From contig DASXCL010000055.1 in the NCBI GenBank assembly GCA_036491195.1, forward strand, positions 23,994 to 87,993: a stretch of 64,000 bases of DNA, read 5' to 3'. This DNA comes from Candidatus Angelobacter sp. Lineage in GTDB: Bacteria > Acidobacteriota > Terriglobia > Terriglobales > Acidobacteriaceae. Positions 2,802 to 23,638 of the stretch are shown here, one piece after another. How positions within the stretch are numbered: position 1 is the first letter of the stretch; the number at the start of each line of letters is the position of its first letter. Made by a program: the position numbers and the translations under genes. Below the pieces are notes generated by a model, which was given only the letters and a program-made list of their open reading frames with translations, was not told where the DNA came from and did not search any database.

Positions 2802-5800
2802 CTAAAGCGGGATGGAGCAGACCACAGCCGAAAAGCCAGATACTGAAAGATCGACTGGAAGCTTAATTACTTTTCCAAAAGCTTCCACTCCTTCTGTGGC
2901 GACGTTGGAGATGGAGCTCGCGATTGATCCGAACGGGAGATTAGTGATGGAGCTCTTGACTACCGTCAAAGAGAACGACGGTGCAGAAACAGTTGTTGCC
3001 GTAGTAGTGGTAATGGAGACATCCGGTATAACTGACGCAGCCGCTTGGGCTGCTTTTGGAGCTCCTCTCTCAATGGCCTGACTGGTTAAAAAAGATCCGA
3101 TTGCCCCCTCAAAGAAACCTATGCCCTCGGAAACGCTGTTGCTGAGGAAAGCATGGGCGACCAGTCCATTGCCCAGTTTCCCATGGCTCAAGCTCTGAAC
3201 GCCGCTTTGCAGGCTGAAGTCTTCGCCACCTTTCTTGACGCAATCAAAGAATTGCCTGGCTTTACCAGGTTTCTTTGGTCCGCGTCCGGGGGCTCCGCCG
3301 CCACCACCATCATCGCCACCAGAGATCGGCGCCGGCGGCCCGCCGCCAATTAAACCGGGAAAGTCAGGAGGCAGAATTTCCGTCACAACGGTATGACATA
3401 CGAAATTGCCATGTCCGTCATCACCACATACGGTCTCAAGTCCAAACGGATCTGAGCCATTTATAGGATCATCCAGGCTATAAGCCAGTCGGTTCCAGCT
3501 CTGCGGGTTTTCAAGAGATCCAATGAGAGGATCTGCCTGCATAAACCTGCCCGTTCTTAGGCTGTAGTAGCGAGAGTATGCGTAATCGGTGGTGCTTTCG
3601 GTTTCCTGCGTGTAAGTACTGAAATTATTTCGCGTAAAGAAACCGGAGCTGTACCAAAGTTCGCCGTAGGGATAGCCGCCGCGCTCGCCGGCCTGGTTGC
3701 CGCTTGCATCGGTAACTAATCTGACGGAGAGATTGTCAGGATGATAGAAGTCAAGCGTGCCGTTCCCGCCGATGGTGACCAGATATCTGCCGTCTTCCTG
3801 GAAAACATATTCCCGGCCGGGCGTCGGCGCCGCGCTGTTATTGAGATATTCCGCGATGATATGGCCCTGGGAAAAGATATAGTACGTAACAGTCCCGTCC
3901 GTTGCGATTTTTTTTGCCCGCAGCCCGTTCCCATCATAGGCAAAGCTAGACGTGCCATTTCCGGAGAAGTTCACCAGCCTGTCGTCCGCGTCATAAGCGT
4001 AGGAAAAGTTTATGATCGGCTCCAACGTGAGATTGCCATTGGCATCGTACGTATATCCGGTGATGTGGTTGGTTGCGGCATCCACCGGAGCGGACTGGGA
4101 TGGCGCACTGCCCGCCGTTACAGTCTGGTTTGTGCGGTTGGCATATCGGTCGTAGGCAAATGACAGCCCCCATTTAGCAAACGATGCCGAGCCACTGGTA
4201 ACCGCGGTTTGCAGCCTTCTCAGCGCGTCATAGGTGTAGGTCAATGAGCGTCCCGCCTGGACATTGTCGGTTGCCTGGGTCACCTCACCATTGTTTCCGC
4301 CATTTTGCGTATGGCCGTATCCAACGCTGAACAAGGTTTGCGCCGGATTGGAGTATGACATCGAGGTCAGTTGGAAATTGTGAGGATTGAAGCCGTAGGC
4401 AGCCGTTATATTGTTCCCATAAGTAAGCCCGGTCACTTTCAGAGCTGGATTATAAGCGTAATTGCTCGCGTATGTGGTGTTAACGCCACTCTTGGTTCCC
4501 GTTACCGACGCCGAGCGCCCGAATGAATCATGATTCTGGGTAATGATGCGCCCTGACGGGTAGGTGGTGGAGGCGATCTGATTACCAAGATCATATCCGT
4601 AGCCGATGTTGTAGGTCCGGGTTGAAATTACTCGTGCGATATTGGTGGTGCGGCCGAGCAAATCATAAGAGTAGGTTTCCGAACCTAATCCGTCGGTCAT
4701 CGTAAGCAGCCGCCCGTTGTTGAAGCTGGCCGGAGCGCTGCCATAAGCATAACTCACCGTGGGAGTGGCGGGAACGCCGGTAGCGCCGACGTTATAGCTG
4801 GCCTGGGTCAAGCGGTTCATCAAGTCATAACTGTAGGTTGTCACCACGCCTCGCGCATCGGTGCGCTGCGAGGGTAAGTTAAATTGATTGAAGACGTAAT
4901 TCACGGTCCCCGATTCAGGTGTCTGTACCTGGATCGGACGCCCGGCGTCATCGTAGACATAGCTTCGCGTCTGCGATCCCTGGCTGATCTGTTTCAATTC
5001 ATCGCGAACCGTGTAAGCATATGAGGTAACTTGTGTAAGAGCATTCCCATTGGTGACGTCCGGCTCCGTTACCGCTTGAATGCGTCCCAGACTGTCCAAT
5101 TGATACAAAATCTGCTTACCCGTTGCGTCGGTAATCGTAAGCATATTGCCGGAATACGCATATGAAGTAGCCGTATTGCTAGAGACGCCATCGGCAGGCT
5201 CGATGACAGTGGTGGTTCTTGAGTTAGCATCATAGTGCGTTTCAGTGAAATCGCTGGCGCTCCCAACATAAGGTTCGCTTACTTTGAAAATGTTGCCGAT
5301 GGGATCATAGATAGTGTCTACATTTGAAATGACCGTTGCGGCATTATTGGCAATCGTCTGGCGGACCTGACGTGCAAGGCCGTCAAAGTCTGTAATGTCG
5401 CGGCGGCGATCGGTGCCTTGGACAGGTGTTTCGGCGGTAACTGTTACATTCGTATCGTCATACGCGAAGGTAATATTTTGGTTGTCAGGCCGGGTGACCT
5501 GCGTAATCCGATTGAAAGGAACATCATAGGCGAATGTTGTCTTCTGGTTGTTCTCATCGGTGAGCGTGGTTATTGTTCCGGTGAACGCATTGTACGTGAA
5601 GAACTGGCTGGTGGAGGGGCCGGAGACCGGACCGCAAATGATAGCATCAGGAAAAGCAAACTGCGTAGTCGAGGAAAAAGAAAACCGCTGCAACTGACAG
5701 ACGTTGGAATCAGCCTGGATCAGGTTGCCCAGCGAATCATAAGACCGGTGTCTGACGATTGCGCCGCTGGGCACCGCTGCATTAGTGTAAGTGGTTATTG

Positions 5801-17644: not shown

Positions 17645-19090
17645 CTAATTTCCAGCCGGCTTGCTGCCCATCGCCGGCAGAGGCAGCCTGCCATCCGCGC
17701 CGCTGGTTAGCGCCACGAATGCCGGGTCCTTATAGAGCGACGCAAACACCGCATCCACGCGCGCTTCCATCATCTCTTTGCTGCGCACGGATTGATAGCG
17801 TTCATACTCAAAGAAGTGGCGTTTCAACAGTGAGAGCGCTTTGTCTTTTTGCCCCAGCTGCGCATAGATGGCGGCCAGATTGTAAGAAGCGCACAGGATC
17901 TTTTCATTATCTTTTGCGATCTTCAGCGCTTCGTCGCCATGTCCATTGCCGGCCATGAAAGCTGCGGCAAAGATCAGGTTGAAGGGTTCTTTCGGATCGA
18001 GCGCCAGCGCCTGCCGCGTGTATTGATCGGCCTTCGCCTTGTCACCTTCAGAATTCCAATAGACGGCCAGGTTGCGGTAGGCCAGCGCGAGCGGAAACTC
18101 CTGCGTGGAAGATTCCATCAGCCCCAGGCCTTTTTTGAAGTCGCCTTCATGGATTGTCATCTTGCCCAGTCCATGCAGCGCCACGGCGCGCGACAGTGGA
18201 TCAGCCGGCATCGCCAGGATCGCGTTGAAGGTTGTGCGCGCTTTGTCCCACTCGCCCGTGTGGTGGCGATACAGCTCGCCCAGGTAGCGTAGCGGCGTCG
18301 GATCGTTGGGATCAAGGTTGTGCGCGGCGGTGTAATACTTCTGCGCCAGCGTGTATTTGGCGTCGTTTTCCGCCATCAGGCCCATCGACATCGTTTTCTG
18401 GATCTTTGCGCTCACCACGGGATCAAAATTCGGGCCGTCGGGCATCGCGTCGGCGTTCAAGCCAGTTACGCCCAGTTTTTTCAGTTCTTTTACCGCGTCT
18501 TTGGCTTTGCCCGGGAACATGCATTTCTGCTCGGCCACCTGTTTCAGCTCGGCAATAGCGGTCTTGCTGTCGCCGGATTTGACTTTGGACTTGGCGTCCT
18601 CCATCTTCTCCTTCACCGCAGACTCGCGCTTCTTCATTTCGCTTTCCAGCAGCTTTTCCAGGTCACCGACTTTAAGCTTGCCGTTCTTGTTTTCAAGCTT
18701 ATCCACCACCGTGCCATCGGCCTGCACCAATACCGCCACGGGAAGCTTTCCGTCCGGGACATATTTCTGCCCCAGCGCGGTCTGTGCGTCCACAATGCCC
18801 ATAGTCACGCACTGTTGCGAATAAAGCTGCAGCGTGCGCGATTCACGCAGGCTTGAGCGCTCAACCTCGTCCTTGCCGGTGGGGAACCAGTAGACGGCCA
18901 GGCCTTCTTTCACCGGCGCCTGCGGCGTAATCAGCTTCCACGGCACCTGGTAGGTCTGTTGGCTCGATCCTCCACCCATTCCGCCCATGCCTCCGCCGCC
19001 GCCGCCACCGCAGGTGGCCCACACTTGCGGGACCAGTAACACATAGACCATCAGCAGACACACGACGCGTTGGAGAAGTGAAGTTTTCAT
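17645..19090 (-). CDS. secreted TPR-repeat protein with N-terminal thioredoxin-like region
   Basis: I trimmed the start to MKTSLLQRVV (ATG 19090). Signal peptide, then a Gly/Met-rich stretch CGGGGGGGMGGMGGG, then a ~130-aa region resembling a thioredoxin-like fold (LAVYWFP...LPVAVLVQADGTVV), then multiple TPR-like helices in the C-terminal half. Confidence 0.7.
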   Translation of the reverse strand: MKTSLLQRVVCLLMVYVLLVPQVWATCGGGGGGGMGGMGGGSSQQTYQVPWKLITPQAPVKEGLAVYWFPTGKDEVERSSLRESRTLQLYSQQCVTMGIVDAQTALGQKYVPDGKLPVAVLVQADGTVVDKLENKNGKLKVGDLEKLLESEMKKRESAVKEKMEDAKSKVKSGDSKTAIAELKQVAEQKCMFPGKAKDAVKELKKLGVTGLNADAMPDGPNFDPVVSAKIQKTMSMGLMAENDAKYTLAQKYYTAAHNLDPNDPTPLRYLGELYRHHTGEWDKARTTFNAILAMPADPLSRAVALHGLGKMTIHEGDFKKGLGLMESSTQEFPLALAYRNLAVYWNSEGDKAKADQYTRQALALDPKEPFNLIFAAAFMAGNGHGDEALKIAKDNEKILCASYNLAAIYAQLGQKDKALSLLKRHFFEYERYQSVRSKEMMEARVDAVFASLYKDPAFVALTSGADGRLPLPAMGSKPAGN

Positions 19091-19425
19091 GCGGCAAATT
19101 ATACAGCAGCACTGGACGATCTGAGCGTTTTGGGGCGATAGCACCTAGATGGTGTGAAAAAACGCTTGGATAGGCGAACATTAACATGGTAGCCTTCGAA
19201 GGCCGCTCTAAATCACTCCCTTGTTAAGTTTTGTCAGGTGTCCGATCCGTGCGGCTAAGGGCTACCAAAGGGAGAACTCCTACGTCAGGTTCTTTGCGTC
19301 CGCGTCACCATTTAAGCCGACAGTTGATCGCTGTCACTCCAGAGTACCAAATTAAAGCACCACTATTCAAAACCCAATCGTGCTCCTTTGGATCACGGCA
19401 GGGTATCCTTCGATGAGGATTAGGT

Positions 19426-20475
19426 ATGAGTTCATTTAGCTGGATTCACTTGTGCGATTTGCATTTTGGACTAACTGGCCAACGTCCTCTGTGGACGAAC
19501 GTCAGGAAAGTTTTATTTGATGATCTCAGAGCGCTGCATGAGCGGTCAGGGCCGTGGCATGCCGTACTGTTCACCGGCGATCTCGCTCAGTCCGGAAAGC
19601 CGGAAGAGTTCGCGGGACTAGATGAACAAGTCCTAGGCCCTCTCTGGGAAATGATGCGTGAACTCGGATCGGAGAATGTTGTTCTCGTGCCTGTTCCGGG
19701 CAATCATGATCTCATCCGACCTGACACCAAGAAGCCGAAAGCCGCTTTACGACAGCTTTTCCGGGAAGGAGGATTCCACGAGATTGAGGAAGAATTCTGG
19801 ACTGATCCAGCCTGCGAATATCGTGAGATCGTAACTACGGCATTTGCGAATTATGACCAATGGTACGAAAGATCGCCCTTTTGCAAAAAGCACGGGTTAC
19901 AACGCGGGATTCTTCCAGGCGATATCGCTCTCAGCTTAGAGATTCCAGATGCGGTTCCTAAGTCGTCGCCGAAAAAGATAGGAATAGTGGGGATGAATAC
20001 GACGTTTCTTCAGTTAGCTCAAGGCGACTATGTAGGACGCCTCGCTTGGGATCTAAGGCAGATTCATTCTGCCTGTGGTGATGACCTAGCCGAATGGGTT
20101 CAAGCGCACGATGCTTGCGTATTACTAACCCATCACGGCCCCGACTGGCTTGATTCGCGGTCGCGCAGCGATATTTACCCTGAAATAAATCCGGCCGGCA
20201 GGTTCGCGGTACATCTTTTTGGGCATATGCATGCCAATGTGATGAGATCGACGTCGGCTGGCGGCGGACCGGTACTGCGCTACTGGCAAGGCGCTTCGAT
20301 ATTCGGATTGGAAAAATTCGGTGAGCCCCCGTCCATCGATAGACGACACGGATATACGATCGGTCGCATAGAGAGTTTGGAGCGAGCGGACCAACTCTCC
20401 GCCAATGGCCCCGACTCGCTATCAAGGACGCTAATGGGTGGAGGTTCGAGCGCGACACAGAACACTGCGTCCTAG
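19426..20475 (+). CDS. calcineurin-like metallophosphoesterase (candidate effector of the downstream NACHT protein; possibly its frameshifted N-terminus)
   Basis: 349 aa. RBS gagga is 8 nt upstream. Full MPE motif set in order: IHLCDLHFG (DxH), FTGDLAQSG (GD), VPGNHD (GNHD), LLTHHGP (H), LFGHMH (GH.H). Lies in the lower-GC islet. Confidence 0.8.
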   Translation: MSSFSWIHLCDLHFGLTGQRPLWTNVRKVLFDDLRALHERSGPWHAVLFTGDLAQSGKPEEFAGLDEQVLGPLWEMMRELGSENVVLVPVPGNHDLIRPDTKKPKAALRQLFREGGFHEIEEEFWTDPACEYREIVTTAFANYDQWYERSPFCKKHGLQRGILPGDIALSLEIPDAVPKSSPKKIGIVGMNTTFLQLAQGDYVGRLAWDLRQIHSACGDDLAEWVQAHDACVLLTHHGPDWLDSRSRSDIYPEINPAGRFAVHLFGHMHANVMRSTSAGGGPVLRYWQGASIFGLEKFGEPPSIDRRHGYTIGRIESLERADQLSANGPDSLSRTLMGGGSSATQNTAS

Positions 20476-20510
20476 ACGAACGGGACGGAGGTACCTATCC
20501 CGAGCCTTTA

Positions 20511-22928
20511 TTGGTTGCGCCAGGTGGGCAAGTCCACAGCGAACCTTCATCGCACACAAGGGCTCGTCGATCGACTTCCAACCGAGAACATCTCGTCGGT
20601 TCAGATTTGCCGCACAAGTTCGGTTGGCCTCACACACAACCCGAGTTCACAAAATTCTGTGATGCAGTTTCAAGCGCCCACAACCACATAAGGTTTGTTG
20701 AGATCCCATTTCTTAAAGATATGTCGGATGTCGAGCTGGATAATCTCTATGTTGAACCGCGTTTTAGCGCACAAGAGATTCATCCCGACACCCCACTATT
20801 CCGCTGGCCTAGCTGCTTTCAGCCGATTGATGCGATTCGCCAGAGCTCTCGGCTCGTGCTGCTGGGGGACCCGGGGTCCGGGAAATCCACCTTAGTTAGT
20901 TGTCTTGCTTGGCAGTTGTGTCGTCAGCATCCGAATCTGAGCAGCCCATGGGCAAAACACTTCGGCGGCCTGCTGCCACTGCCAATGATTCTAAGAGAGT
21001 TGCATCTGAAAGCGGATCTAACGTGGGAAGGCCTATTAGATGCTTTTCTTGAGCATCGCATTGGACGACTTTTGGGGACGCGAAAACATATCGAGGCTTT
21101 ATTAAAAGAAGGAAGAGCAATCATCTTACTCGACGGATTAGATGAGGTCGGCAACCTCAGCATCCGGCGTAAACTGCGCGACGCAGTGCATGCAGGAATG
21201 AGTGCATATCCGCTAAGTAGCTGGCTTCTGACGTCGCGCGTCGTAGGATACGAGCAAGTCCCTTTTCACATCAAAATCGAAACCGTTTCGGCGCGTTCAA
21301 ACGCTAGCGCTGAAGTTGTAGGACATACAAATCGAACCAAGAAGCTTAGGACATCAATGGCCGGGCTAAATTATATGGCACCGTTCAATGATCAGCAGAT
21401 ACGCACATTTGCCGTTAACTGGTATACGCAACATGAAAAAGACGAGGGAATGGTCCAAACAAAAGCGCAGGATTTTATTAATGCAATACGGGAAAATGAA
21501 GGTACCCAGCGCCTTGGCAGGATTCCTTACTTGCTTACCTTGATGTCGCTAATACATCACAAGAATGCCACGCTGCCACATGGCCGAACTGAGCTCTATG
21601 AGAGAATTGCGACAGCATATCTAGAATCCATCGATCTACGACGGCAGCTGAATCAGCTACCATACTCACTTGCACAAAAGAAACGATGGCTAGCCGCTGT
21701 CGCATATCGTATGCAACTGCGTCGTTCGGTTAAGGGCACGCAATCCCCGCGAGGAGATATTCTGGTCGCCCGTTCCCAAGTTCAGCAGTGGCTTCGCGCT
21801 GCGATGTCTGACTCGGGCGCCAAAGACTCTCGGACTGAATCTGACGTCCTTCTTACCTATTTTGCCCAACGCAGCGGTCTACTTTTGCCGCGAGCAGAGG
21901 GTAAATTCGCTTTCATGCATTTGTCACTTCAGGAGTATTTTGCGGCTTGCTTTTTAGAGCCCCGCCTGACCGCATCAAGATTTGGCTCGGACAATAAAAG
22001 GCTTGAGCCCTCTAACGAACAATTGCGATCATGGGCAAATTCGGAGATATGGACTGAAACCTTCGTCCTCTTGTTTGAGTTGCTTTCCGAAAAGTCTGTG
22101 GACGAGACAGAGGCGCTCCTCGATTATCTTTTCAGCGGACGACTGAAACAAGACAAAACGGGAACAGCCCTAAGTGCAGCAGGTCTATTAGCGGAATTAG
22201 CCACCGATCCGTTCGTTTTGTTGAGCGCCGAAACCCGCAGGCTGATAAGGCAGCAATGTTGGCGCTGGGTTTTTTCGCAGCGTGAAGCATCACCTTCTAG
22301 GCGGTATTATAGCCCTAACTCTAATAAGGTTATTCGCACTTTGTTAAGGGAGCATGATGGGGATCTCCGAAAGAGTTGGTTAGCCTCGTCAATCGGCATG
22401 ACCGAGCTACGACGGTTGAAGCATCTGAACCTTAGCGGATGTTTGACGCTCGCCGACCTTGCTCCTCTTAGTAACCTTAGCAAGCTTAAGTCTCTTAACC
22501 TACAGGGATGTACATCTGTCACGAATCTACGACCCCTAAAGGGGTTAGGCAATCTTGAGGCTCTATTGTTGGATGGTTGCTCGAAAATAAATAATTTAGA
22601 ACCGCTGGGAGAAATGAACAAGTTAGAATTCCTCATTATTGGTGCACCTTGCAACTTTGCTCCCCTTGCTAACATGAAGTCTCTGAAATCCATCCACTTA
22701 CACTTTCAGGATGAAAAAGCTGAAGTTGACTTCTCGCCAATAGCGAACCTACCGCAGCTTACCCTTGTGTGTGTCCCCGGGCCGTTAAGGCTTGCGTCGA
22801 ACGGGCGGGAAATACTCCAGAGTGGGACTTCGCCTGGGGTTAGAAGATTGGTAAAACAGTTAGGACCGGAGGGATTATTGGGCGAACGTTATTACCGGGC
22901 GAAGCGTGCCCAACTACTCAAGCGATAA
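20511..22928 (+). CDS. NACHT-family STAND NTPase with C-terminal leucine-rich repeats (bacterial NLR-like)
   Basis: 805 aa from a TTG start; the frame is actually open from 20343. Walker A LLGDPGSGKST (~20866-20892), Walker B AIILLDGLDEV, LLTSR, FNDQQIRTFAVNWY and IPYLLTLMSLI all fit NACHT. The C-terminus (~22400-22760) has at least 5 tandem ~22-aa LRRs (LKHLNLSGCLTLADLAPLSNLS / KLKSLNLQGCTSVTNLRPLKGLG / NLEALLLDGCSKINNLEPLGEMN / KLEFLIIG...). Confidence 0.85.
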   Translation: MVAPGGQVHSEPSSHTRARRSTSNREHLVGSDLPHKFGWPHTQPEFTKFCDAVSSAHNHIRFVEIPFLKDMSDVELDNLYVEPRFSAQEIHPDTPLFRWPSCFQPIDAIRQSSRLVLLGDPGSGKSTLVSCLAWQLCRQHPNLSSPWAKHFGGLLPLPMILRELHLKADLTWEGLLDAFLEHRIGRLLGTRKHIEALLKEGRAIILLDGLDEVGNLSIRRKLRDAVHAGMSAYPLSSWLLTSRVVGYEQVPFHIKIETVSARSNASAEVVGHTNRTKKLRTSMAGLNYMAPFNDQQIRTFAVNWYTQHEKDEGMVQTKAQDFINAIRENEGTQRLGRIPYLLTLMSLIHHKNATLPHGRTELYERIATAYLESIDLRRQLNQLPYSLAQKKRWLAAVAYRMQLRRSVKGTQSPRGDILVARSQVQQWLRAAMSDSGAKDSRTESDVLLTYFAQRSGLLLPRAEGKFAFMHLSLQEYFAACFLEPRLTASRFGSDNKRLEPSNEQLRSWANSEIWTETFVLLFELLSEKSVDETEALLDYLFSGRLKQDKTGTALSAAGLLAELATDPFVLLSAETRRLIRQQCWRWVFSQREASPSRRYYSPNSNKVIRTLLREHDGDLRKSWLASSIGMTELRRLKHLNLSGCLTLADLAPLSNLSKLKSLNLQGCTSVTNLRPLKGLGNLEALLLDGCSKINNLEPLGEMNKLEFLIIGAPCNFAPLANMKSLKSIHLHFQDEKAEVDFSPIANLPQLTLVCVPGPLRLASNGREILQSGTSPGVRRLVKQLGPEGLLGERYYRAKRAQLLKR

Positions 22929-23024
22929 TAGCGAAATAGTCCAGCATTGCCGACTGTCCCAGCTGACACGAGAAAAGGGTTGATTCCCCTTGCAATAGCG
23001 AATAAAATACGACATAATGCAAAA

Positions 23025-23052
23025 GACTATTCGGCTAAGAGGCTGAATAGTC
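23025..23052 (+). terminator. hairpin downstream of the NACHT gene (possible terminator, no U-tract)
   Basis: gactattcggc-taagag-gctgaatagtc (one mismatch), 97 nt after the stop. No T-run follows. Confidence 0.3.
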
Positions 23053-23179
23053 CTGTCCGTCCAGGCGGAACGGCGAACGGTCTTTGAAAACTTAACGGCT
23101 AGCAACTGGCAACTGGCCGAAGCAGGGTATTTTGGTACGTGGTAGTTGGTATTTGGCAAGGATTGCGACCCTCTACCGA

Positions 23180-23261
23180 CTGGGATTGGGACTGGGACTA
23201 GGTCTGGGATTGGGTGACGCCTGGATCACCCAAGCGTCACGCCTGGATCACGCCTGGATCA
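23180..23261. repeat. short tandem repeats at the right edge of the low-GC islet
   Basis: Hexamer-like run ctgggattgggactgggactaggtctgggattggg (23180-23216), followed by three copies of cgcctggatca (23219, 23240, 23251). Confidence 0.7.
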
Positions 23262-23638
23262 CCCTTGGGTTGAATGGAACAAGTGCTTTGTTTGCAACAA
23301 AAGCGCAAAAATGGGGGGTGGGTAAGGAAGATCGGGTGATCCGCAAACCGATTTACTAGAGAGTAAATTTGGCGATCGGGCGAGCGAGAAAAAAGCAACG
23401 CGATTCGAGCTGGAGAAAACGAGAAAAAGGACGGTCGACAGCCTTTTGACTGTCTTATCGAATGGCAGTTTGGCCATTGTTTTCAACAAAAGCCTTACCC
23501 CCGGGTGGGGTAGGCCGAAAATGTTACTAGAAAGGCAACAAATCGATGTTAAAAAGCCGGGGGATTTTGGCCGCGGATTTGCGCGAATCAGCAATTCCCG
23601 GGATCGCCGAAATCGATATCGCCGAGAAACGGAAGTAC

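Follow-up and report, generated by a model that had tools for sequence, protein, structure and literature searches.

We conclude that positions 19426 to 22928 of the window, a 64,000-nt stretch of contig DASXCL010000055.1 from Candidatus Angelobacter sp., probably represent one gene for a bacterial NLR-like protein of ~1166 amino acids. A real duplication of the dinucleotide AG has apparently broken this gene, leaving a recent pseudogene or null allele. From N to C terminus, the protein would carry a calcineurin-like metallophosphoesterase effector, a central NACHT NTPase and leucine-rich repeats (LRRs). The locus is an ordinary, recently inactivated member of a known family and involves no new mechanism. 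Its features are as follows.

19426-20475, + strand: metallophosphoesterase ORF (P0001), 349 aa, stop TAG 20473-20475
19426-20373, + strand: metallophosphoesterase effector, residues 1-316 in the native frame; PF00149; metal-binding motifs all present
20343-22928, + strand: NACHT frame (P0002 frame), open from 20343 to its stop at 22926-22928; TAG 20340-20342 lies just upstream
20370-20375, + strand: site of the lesion, an (AG)3 run with AG in excess at 20374-20375; relatives read ATA GAG TTT in frame
20374-20475, + strand: out-of-frame tail of the 349-aa ORF, 33 residues (SLERADQLSANGPDS...TAS), stop TAG 20473-20475
20376-20507, + strand: last three or four effector beta-strands (FGASGPTLRQWPRLAIKDANGWRFERD...DGGT), now in the NACHT frame, without a start codon
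20508-20849, + strand: linker (disordered in the homologue model), then conserved pre-NACHT segment (HIRFVEIP...YVEPRF); holds the sole in-frame starts
20850-21260, + strand: NACHT NTPase core; Walker A GDPGSGKST, Walker B ILLDGLDE, TSR
22374-22640, + strand: leucine-rich repeats (sensor part); Pfam LRR_R13L1-DRL21 and LRR_4; ORF stop 22926-22928

The two reading frames

The NACHT frame is already open within the 3′ end of the phosphoesterase ORF, and no convincing start can be assigned to it. The initial annotation had described this frame as open across 20343-22928 and overlapping the phosphoesterase, which was confirmed on the sequence; re-translation also reproduced its two quoted peptide strings exactly. 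The in-frame starts are TTG 20511, TTG 20607 and ATG 20721. None of the three has a well-spaced Shine-Dalgarno sequence, and three gene callers selected three different starts. The first ATG had been placed near 20730, 45 codons before the Walker A motif; the codon count is correct, but the true position is 20721. It had also been noted that TTG 20511 lacks a well-spaced ribosome-binding site and that the nearest ggagg is about 20 nt upstream. We found this ggagg 19 nt upstream, at 20487-20491. Since it falls within the GAC GGA GGT ACC codons of the conserved D-G-G-T motif, it is coding sequence rather than a ribosome-binding site. The open stretch upstream of TTG 20511 did not arise by chance, because in the homologue alignment it encodes the near-invariant residues W, P, R, A, W, D, D, G and T. 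The proposal that this peptide is genuine protein is thus upheld, with 20376-20510 conserved in homologues.

Intact homologues encode a single protein

The earlier reading of the two frames as one effector-NACHT-LRR gene split by a frameshift, to be checked by asking whether homologues are single ORFs, is borne out by fused homologues that are colinear across both frames. In 35 close homologues, with 43-73% identity to the fused reference, a single ORF spans ~1125-1220 aa, a size that agrees with the continuous protein of about 1160 aa predicted earlier, and the four genome loci of this type all have uninterrupted frames. PF00149 is on record for nearly all of the 35, with NACHT or LRR families too in most. 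The W-P-R...G-W-R-F stretch is nearly invariant among them, in keeping with the earlier suggestion that it resembles the region following the catalytic core in long phosphoesterase-STAND fusion proteins.

Two relatives are especially informative. P0006 ("MAG: metallophosphoesterase [Acidobacteria bacterium]", 1180 aa, locus L015) is colinear throughout, with 65% identity in the effector and 59% in the NACHT-LRR part; it is one uninterrupted frame, whereas the window has an extra AG. P0123, from a JGI metagenome, belongs to the same gene lineage (~91% identity over 851 aa), lacks the AG insertion and reads through the junction in one frame. On the P0123 contig, an upstream ORF in the same frame ends at a stop ~20 codons before the called start; this in-frame stop suggests that P0123 has itself been broken, independently, by a nonsense codon. 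One metagenome scan for the DNA of this relative returned only 58% relatives.

Location and nature of the lesion

P0123 reads ...GYTIGRIEFGASGPTLRQWPR... in a single frame across the junction. By tblastn, 20308-20373 corresponds to its residues 1-22, and 20373-22925, read in the other frame, to residues 22-872, so that the uninterrupted P0123 junction (GRIEFGASGPTLRQWPR) places the frame change in the window at 20371-20375, the point that the initial annotation had proposed to find by this kind of search. P0123 has GRIE-FGASGPTLRQ; in the window GRIE ends at 20373 and FGASGP begins at 20376, leaving AG as surplus. The only dinucleotide repeat in the frame overlap is the (AG)3 run. Based on the in-frame reading of P0123 and the frame change located by tblastn, we infer that the lesion is an extra AG in this run. 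A single nucleotide missing at CTCTCCG (20395-20401) had been suggested previously. This site was ruled out: P0123 fixes the break at 20373/20376, ~25 nt upstream, and from 20394 the NACHT frame already encodes T-L-R-Q-W-P-R, the counterpart of T-I-R-Q-W-P-R in the homologues.

In the 33-residue tail of the 349-aa ORF, the conserved WPR/NGWRF/DGGT coding region is translated out of frame. Similar G-G-S-S tails are carried by other frameshifted homologues.

Could the two frames be rejoined during expression? A -1 shift anywhere in 20343-20472 would do so, and programmed -1 ribosomal frameshifting or transcriptional slippage might restore the full-length protein at some frequency. The overlap, however, contains no in-frame X XXY YYZ heptamer, and its longest homopolymer is C4; slippage over CTCTC (L-L), as once envisaged, therefore finds no slippery heptamer there, and relatives do without any shift. 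Neither P0123 nor any fused homologue examined shows one, so no conserved recoding signal exists, and broken copies elsewhere have mixed kinds of lesion. With neither a slippery heptamer nor a two-frame layout conserved in relatives, we rejected programmed frameshifting, which is extremely improbable here.

Alternatively, the extra AG could be a sequencing or consensus error in a gene that is intact in the organism. The genome is a draft (200 contigs, 5.97% contamination), and the three assemblies that contain the sequence could stem from one library. Nevertheless, NCBI, JGI and Logan all record the exact frameshifted 349-aa product, tail included; the contigs that carry it measure 112 kb, 54 kb and 5.2 kb, and over 9050 nt the JGI contig does not differ from the window. 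Although these assemblies may share reads, finding the same broken sequence in all three makes an assembler artefact unlikely. The site is moreover a dinucleotide triplet and not a homopolymer. We consider an error very unlikely, and a real AG duplication remains our preferred reading.

Consequences for the effector

The N-terminal module is clearly recognizable. It matches PF00149 with 35.3 bits (cut-off 21.5), residues 8-270 covering profile positions 5-190 of 191, and residues 1-314/318 of fused homologues align over 19426-20373/20388 by tblastn. The metal-binding motifs DLH, GD, GNHD, THHG (HH) and GHMH of P0001 all lie at invariant or near-invariant family columns. In order to place the break in the fold, we used an AF2 model built for residues 1-400 of the fused homologue P0006 (pLDDT 86.7). 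Its strands run at 306-316, 319-332, 335-340 and 357-360, the last three with pLDDT ~90, and residues 368-400 fall below 50. The break maps after residue 314 of the model, where the phosphoesterase fold makes a beta-hairpin turn. Structural alignments with the minimal phosphoesterases Rv0805, GpdQ, Mre11 and SbcD extend to model residues 328-336 and those with PAP/SMPDL3 to ~360, and in more than 100 homologues of other architectures the effector homology ends at about residues 352-366. The 349-aa ORF does not hold the complete beta-sandwich; its match ceases after residue 316, and the later strands are in the other frame.

The AG duplication (20374-20375) shifts the frame in the hairpin turn near the end of the effector fold. 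Translation from ATG 19426 is predicted to yield a 349-aa product with complete catalytic motifs, the last three or four strands missing and 33 nonsense residues in their place. The NACHT-LRR part would be left with neither a start codon nor a ribosome-binding site of its own. Judged from the structural model of the homologue, the product has probably lost its function, and the likeliest outcome would be a null allele, that is, a recently made pseudogene.

Among solved structures, the effector shares its fold with YydB of Bacillus subtilis (PDB 9a6c chain B; VIA Z 31.2, 314 residues aligned) and the calcineurin-like metallophosphoesterase fold with Rv0805, GpdQ, Mre11/SbcD and SMPDL3 (Z 16-21), but sequence identity to all of these is just 10-19%. 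Unlike YydB and the other solved enzymes, the module here belongs to a gene coding for a fusion with a STAND NTPase.

Age of the lesion and broken copies elsewhere

Neither half of the gene shows signs of decay. Of the 80 differences between the window and P0123, only two affect the 224 columns with at least 90% conservation, and the window departs from the consensus at 11 of 304 conserved columns, a number inside the range of intact homologues. With no relaxed selection or decay visible in either half, the lesion appears to be young. The same lack of decay in both halves is equally expected of a split that is still functional.

Broken copies are common in the family. In other copies the damage is of mixed kinds, with one frameshift located at a homopolymer run, one nonsense codon and one insertion of an IS element. 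We examined an unbiased, ORF-independent DNA-level sample of 80 loci, in which about one in ten species-representative loci of the effector family had an effector-only lesion. The effector lesions lay at about residues 28, 51-132, 114, 204-257, 242, 268 and 324. Many database fragments end at residues 270-334, from lists ranked by score and filtered by length. A clustering of breaks at the hairpin was ruled out as mostly ascertainment, one of the seven effector lesions among the 80 loci being in that zone. In the sister clade, P0170 and P0171 are 63% identical with saturated synonymous sites, and each retains an open 321-aa ORF ending 8-9 codons beyond the window's break, in the same hairpin region. 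That both ORFs are still open despite such divergence suggests that a truncated effector may be tolerated. L095 and L096, diverged sister-clade genes, have in common an in-frame TAG at the W of WPR. We also rejected the idea that the P0170/P0171 subclade shares a conserved stop or recoding site; this is not a clade-wide trait, most members (L097-L126) having intact ORFs of ~1040 codons.

These observations bear on functional gene fission, in which a truncated phosphoesterase and a re-initiated, effector-less NACHT-LRR protein would form a two-protein system, or the NACHT-LRR part alone would serve as a sensor or decoy. Re-initiation is conceivable, because the stop at 20473-20475 is only 36 nt before TTG 20511, and the undecayed halves, the P0170/P0171 ORFs and the fragments ending at residues 297-334 would all be consistent with fission. 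On the other hand, by structural alignment the break removes strands inside the phosphoesterase fold and adds 33 junk residues, the NACHT frame has no spaced ribosome-binding site and three disputed starts, the nearest relative, all four genome loci and the 35 close homologues are fused, and the effector lesions in the 80-locus sample are spread out rather than at the hairpin. We therefore regard fission as unlikely. Its narrower form, a young, tolerated fission into a free truncated phosphoesterase and a re-initiated effector-less NACHT-LRR protein, with recurring hairpin breaks, seems quite unlikely. Were it true, hairpin breaks would recur by uncoupling a costly effector from its sensor with both parts kept, and the TAG of L095/L096 would go back to an earlier event of this kind. 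As a recent pseudogene, the locus is one more dated case of a wider pattern, in which large effector-STAND immune genes frequently turn up in broken form.

Distribution, sensor module and known systems

The gene was not found among 36 same-genus and 24 same-order genomes, and its GC content is ~50% compared with ~57% in the flanks. It is most likely an accessory, sporadically distributed and horizontally acquired immune or conflict gene. Around it lie genes for a TPR protein and a response regulator, together with small ORFs and a gas-vesicle cluster, so no defence-island context is recognizable. PADLOC gave partial matches only: PDC-S60 (E 9.7e-12) in the effector and mad8 (E 5.5e-5) in the P-loop.

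Kibby et al. (bioRxiv 10.1101/2022.07.19.500537) list LRR sensors as well as calcineurin-like phosphoesterase effectors for bacterial NACHT proteins, and the layout here of effector, NACHT and C-terminal repeat sensor is that of bNACHT anti-phage proteins such as the LRR-bearing bNACHT16 (Kibby et al.). In contrast to these, the window copy is split by a frameshift, lies outside a recognizable defence island and has a NACHT score slightly under the Pfam cut-off. The homologues carry effector, NACHT and sensor on one polypeptide; the window carries them in two frames. Calcineurin-like phosphoesterase effectors also occur in other conflict systems, in which this module has been recombined with such partners as NB-ARC, TIR and caspase (Kaur et al., eLife 2021, PMC8195603); the clade of the window specifically combines it with NACHT and LRRs.

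Residues 170-306 of P0002 match Pfam NACHT (PF05729) with 24.4 bits (cut-off 26.7), and P0006 matches with 26.3 bits over positions 1-163 of 167. The profile is matched by 23 of 26 homologues (best E 2.4e-8), and the NACHT-clade motifs of P0002, Walker A GDPGSGKST and Walker B AIILLDGLDE, lie at invariant columns. A PDB sequence search with the family profile yielded no NACHT chains at E <= 0.001, only LRR proteins and one phosphoesterase. The repeats score 32.2 bits for LRR_R13L1-DRL21 and 27.6 bits for LRR_4 (cut-off 27 for both), and internalin A in the PDB is matched by the family profile with E 7.7e-38. The JGI name "internalin A" mirrors the leucine-rich repeats only; 19426-22928 should be annotated as one disrupted gene (pseudogene) instead of being divided into a "metallophosphoesterase" and an independent NACHT or "internalin" protein.

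Reading frames and homologues

Two open frames, confirmed from the ORF list and its translations, overlap by 133 nt at this locus:

Window 19426-20475, Metallophos ORF of 349 aa
Window 20343-22928, NACHT-LRR frame, open from right after a TAG (20340-20342) to its stop at 22926-22928

A Pfam search assigned the first to Metallophos and the second to LRR families, with NACHT just under the cut-off. As the initial annotation had noted, the second frame has no good start, and a well-spaced Shine-Dalgarno sequence is absent at all three available starts (TTG 20511, TTG 20607 and ATG 20721). The GGAGG reported upstream of TTG 20511 is present (20487-20491), but it forms part of the codons GAC GGA GGT ACC, which encode a conserved D-G-G-T motif. 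Three gene callers chose different starts (20511 in the ORF list, 20607 in NCBI/JGI and 20721 in Logan); products of 773 aa (NCBI/JGI) and 735 aa (Logan) are on record.

Searching with the open NACHT frame yielded 35 close homologues of ~1125-1220 aa, with PF00149 recorded in nearly all and NACHT or LRR families in most. Their alignment (A1) runs unbroken through ...DRRHGYSxGRIEFxxxxxTIRQWPRRAxKDxNGWRFERDxExCVLxExDGGT.... The window's phosphoesterase frame matches A1 through GRIE, and its NACHT frame matches from F-G-A-S-G-P-T-L-R-Q-W-P-R on; the W-P-R...G-W-x-F-x-x-D stretch, previously suspected to be genuine protein, is real and near-invariant in the homologues. Metallophos-NACHT-LRR loci in species-representative genomes are single unbroken frames in all four cases. 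Because the homologues are single ORFs, A1 is unbroken and the four genome loci are uninterrupted, sequence comparison identifies window 19426-22928 as one effector-NACHT-LRR gene divided by a frameshift, as had been proposed. Read across the break, its protein has 316 + 850 = 1166 residues, within the size range of the intact homologues.

NACHT proteins of bacteria that carry an effector at the N terminus and a repeat sensor at the C terminus act in anti-phage defence; Kibby et al. (10.1101/2022.07.19.500537) list LRR sensors as well as calcineurin-like phosphoesterase effectors for them. Conflict systems of other types also contain this kind of effector (Kaur et al., PMC8195603). By architecture and motifs the window gene belongs with the NACHT proteins, as a putative defence gene, and the window copy is broken. 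Overall, it is an unremarkable member of a known family that was probably frameshifted recently.

Nature of the lesion

The break was located using P0123, a ~91%-identical JGI metagenome relative found in the 90% cluster of the window NACHT protein, which reads in a single frame across the junction (LERFGDPPSIDRRHGYTIGRIEFGASGPTLRQWPRLAIKDANGWRFERD). In the tblastn check that had been recommended, the match to P0123 lay in the phosphoesterase frame for residues 1-22 (20308-20373) and in the NACHT frame for residues 22-872 (20373-22925), placing the shift at 20373. Since the last base of GRIE is 20373 and the first of FGASGP is 20376, the window has two extra bases relative to P0123, AG at 20374-20375, within ATAGAGAGTTT. 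The (AG)3 run is the sole dinucleotide repeat in the overlap. The initial annotation was therefore correct about a frameshift-split single gene but not about the site or type of lesion: it had assumed one missing nucleotide, and its site, CTCTCCG (20395-20401), lies ~25 nt too far downstream. By CTCTCCG the sequence already reads T-L-R-Q in the NACHT frame, in agreement with the family's T-I-R-Q.

The extra AG is unlikely to be a sequencing or assembly artefact, because three assemblies concur and the lesion does not lie in a homopolymer. The exact 349-aa product with its out-of-frame tail is recorded in NCBI, JGI/IMG and Logan, on contigs of unequal lengths: 112 kb (the contig that holds the window), 54 kb (JGI, with 9050 nt identical to the window) and 5.2 kb (Logan, from SRR11833745). 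On the other side, the three assemblies may share one library. Programmed frameshifting is a still weaker candidate. A -1 shift within the overlap would reunite the frames; however, the overlap contains no X XXY YYZ heptamer, its longest run is C4, and relatives read a single frame and need no shift. This makes recoding very unlikely and argues against the -1 slippage site once considered here.

Predicted effect on the effector

An AlphaFold2 model of residues 1-400 of P0006, an intact fused homologue of 1180 aa, (mean pLDDT 86.7) has a folded module up to residue ~360 and a disordered linker after it, with strands at 306-316, 319-332, 335-340 and 357-360. In structural alignments, the minimal phosphoesterases Rv0805, GpdQ, Mre11 and SbcD reach model residues 328-336, while purple acid phosphatases and SMPDL3 reach ~360. 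Among more than 100 effector homologues of other architectures, similarity to P0006 stops at ~352-366. The model, the structural alignments and these homologues put the natural end of the module near residue 360 instead of 316. The window break falls just past the position equivalent to residue 314, in a hairpin turn, and the 349-aa ORF lacks three or four strands and gains 33 nonsense residues, which would be expected to abolish activity. The closest structure to the model is 9a6c_B, the B. subtilis YydB chain of the YydD-YydB model (Z 31.2 over 314 aligned residues; about 21 for other phosphoesterases), which suggests that the modelled effector is specifically related to this little-studied pair.

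Conservation and genomic setting

Conservation classes were defined from the 35 intact homologues (conserved, >=90%). The window differs from P0123 at 80 positions, with 2 in 224 conserved, 13 in 301 intermediate and 60 in 315 variable columns. At 11 of 304 columns its residue differs from the 90% consensus, always conservatively, a rate inside the spread seen among intact homologues (0.3-13.5%). Decay was found in neither half by conserved-column comparison with P0123 and the intact homologues. The lesion may be recent, or both pieces may still be under selection; these data do not separate the two.

Searches of 36 same-genus and 24 same-order genomes did not recover the gene, and GC content is ~50% over 19000-23500 and ~57% in the flanks. 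It is an accessory gene, probably horizontally acquired. TGGATCAC(G)CC-type repeats flank the lower-GC stretch, at 19389-19402, 24 nt upstream of the gene's ATG, and as three tandem units at 23211-23264, ~280 nt past its stop; they may be remnants of an insertion event, or chance. No defence genes were found among the neighbours of the window gene. In contrast, at locus L011 a TIR_2-domain gene (567-1025) lies immediately upstream of a broken Metallophos-NACHT-LRR homologue, a conflict-system neighbourhood that the window locus does not have.

Disrupted relatives

Other copies in the family are also broken, several of them near the window's break. Locus L004 is frameshifted within a G6C5 run (4950-4966), near residue 280, and at L010:1433-1435 TGA replaces the R of WPR. 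At L005, positions 3-116 code for the C terminus of an ISL3-family transposase (PF01610, E 1.8e-6), which adjoins homologue residue ~313; here an IS insertion cuts the gene off at the effector hairpin position. The P0123 contig itself appears to contain an in-frame stop near residue 270. Many short database proteins stop at residues 297-334, some sharing the window's G-G-S-S out-of-frame tail, and other breaks lie away from the hairpin (L012, ~410; L011, ~643; L014, ~678).

Since these lists were score-ranked and length-filtered, 80 effector-module loci from species-representative genomes were sampled independently of ORFs. Roughly 1 in 10 carried a stop or frameshift inside the effector, at ~residues 28, 51-132, 114, 204-257, 242, 268 and 324. 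With these lesions scattered and a single one of the seven falling in the zone of the hairpin, clustering at the hairpin was rejected as mostly ascertainment. Across many phyla (L097-L175), the module leads ORFs of ~360, 450-740, 1020-1060, 1130-1310 and 1630 codons from the module start, and it looks like an effector cassette that recombines freely.

The sister-clade proteins P0170 and P0171 (loci L095 and L096) share 63% protein and 40% third-position identity, with synonymous sites saturated. Both stop at an in-frame TAG precisely at the W of WPR, and 19 of the 20 nt from the TAG onward are identical (L095:5464-5483, L096:4690-4709). At L095 no further stop interrupts the frame for another 386 codons, across a P-loop NTPase; at L096 the downstream region is degraded. 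The majority of their subclade in the 80-locus sample is intact. Two further effector fragments, P0150 and P0160, end in ...RKSTRLNSSH... and ...DRKSTL, tails that look like one small inserted element shared by both, or like an assembly artefact, and not like a frameshifted reading of the gene.
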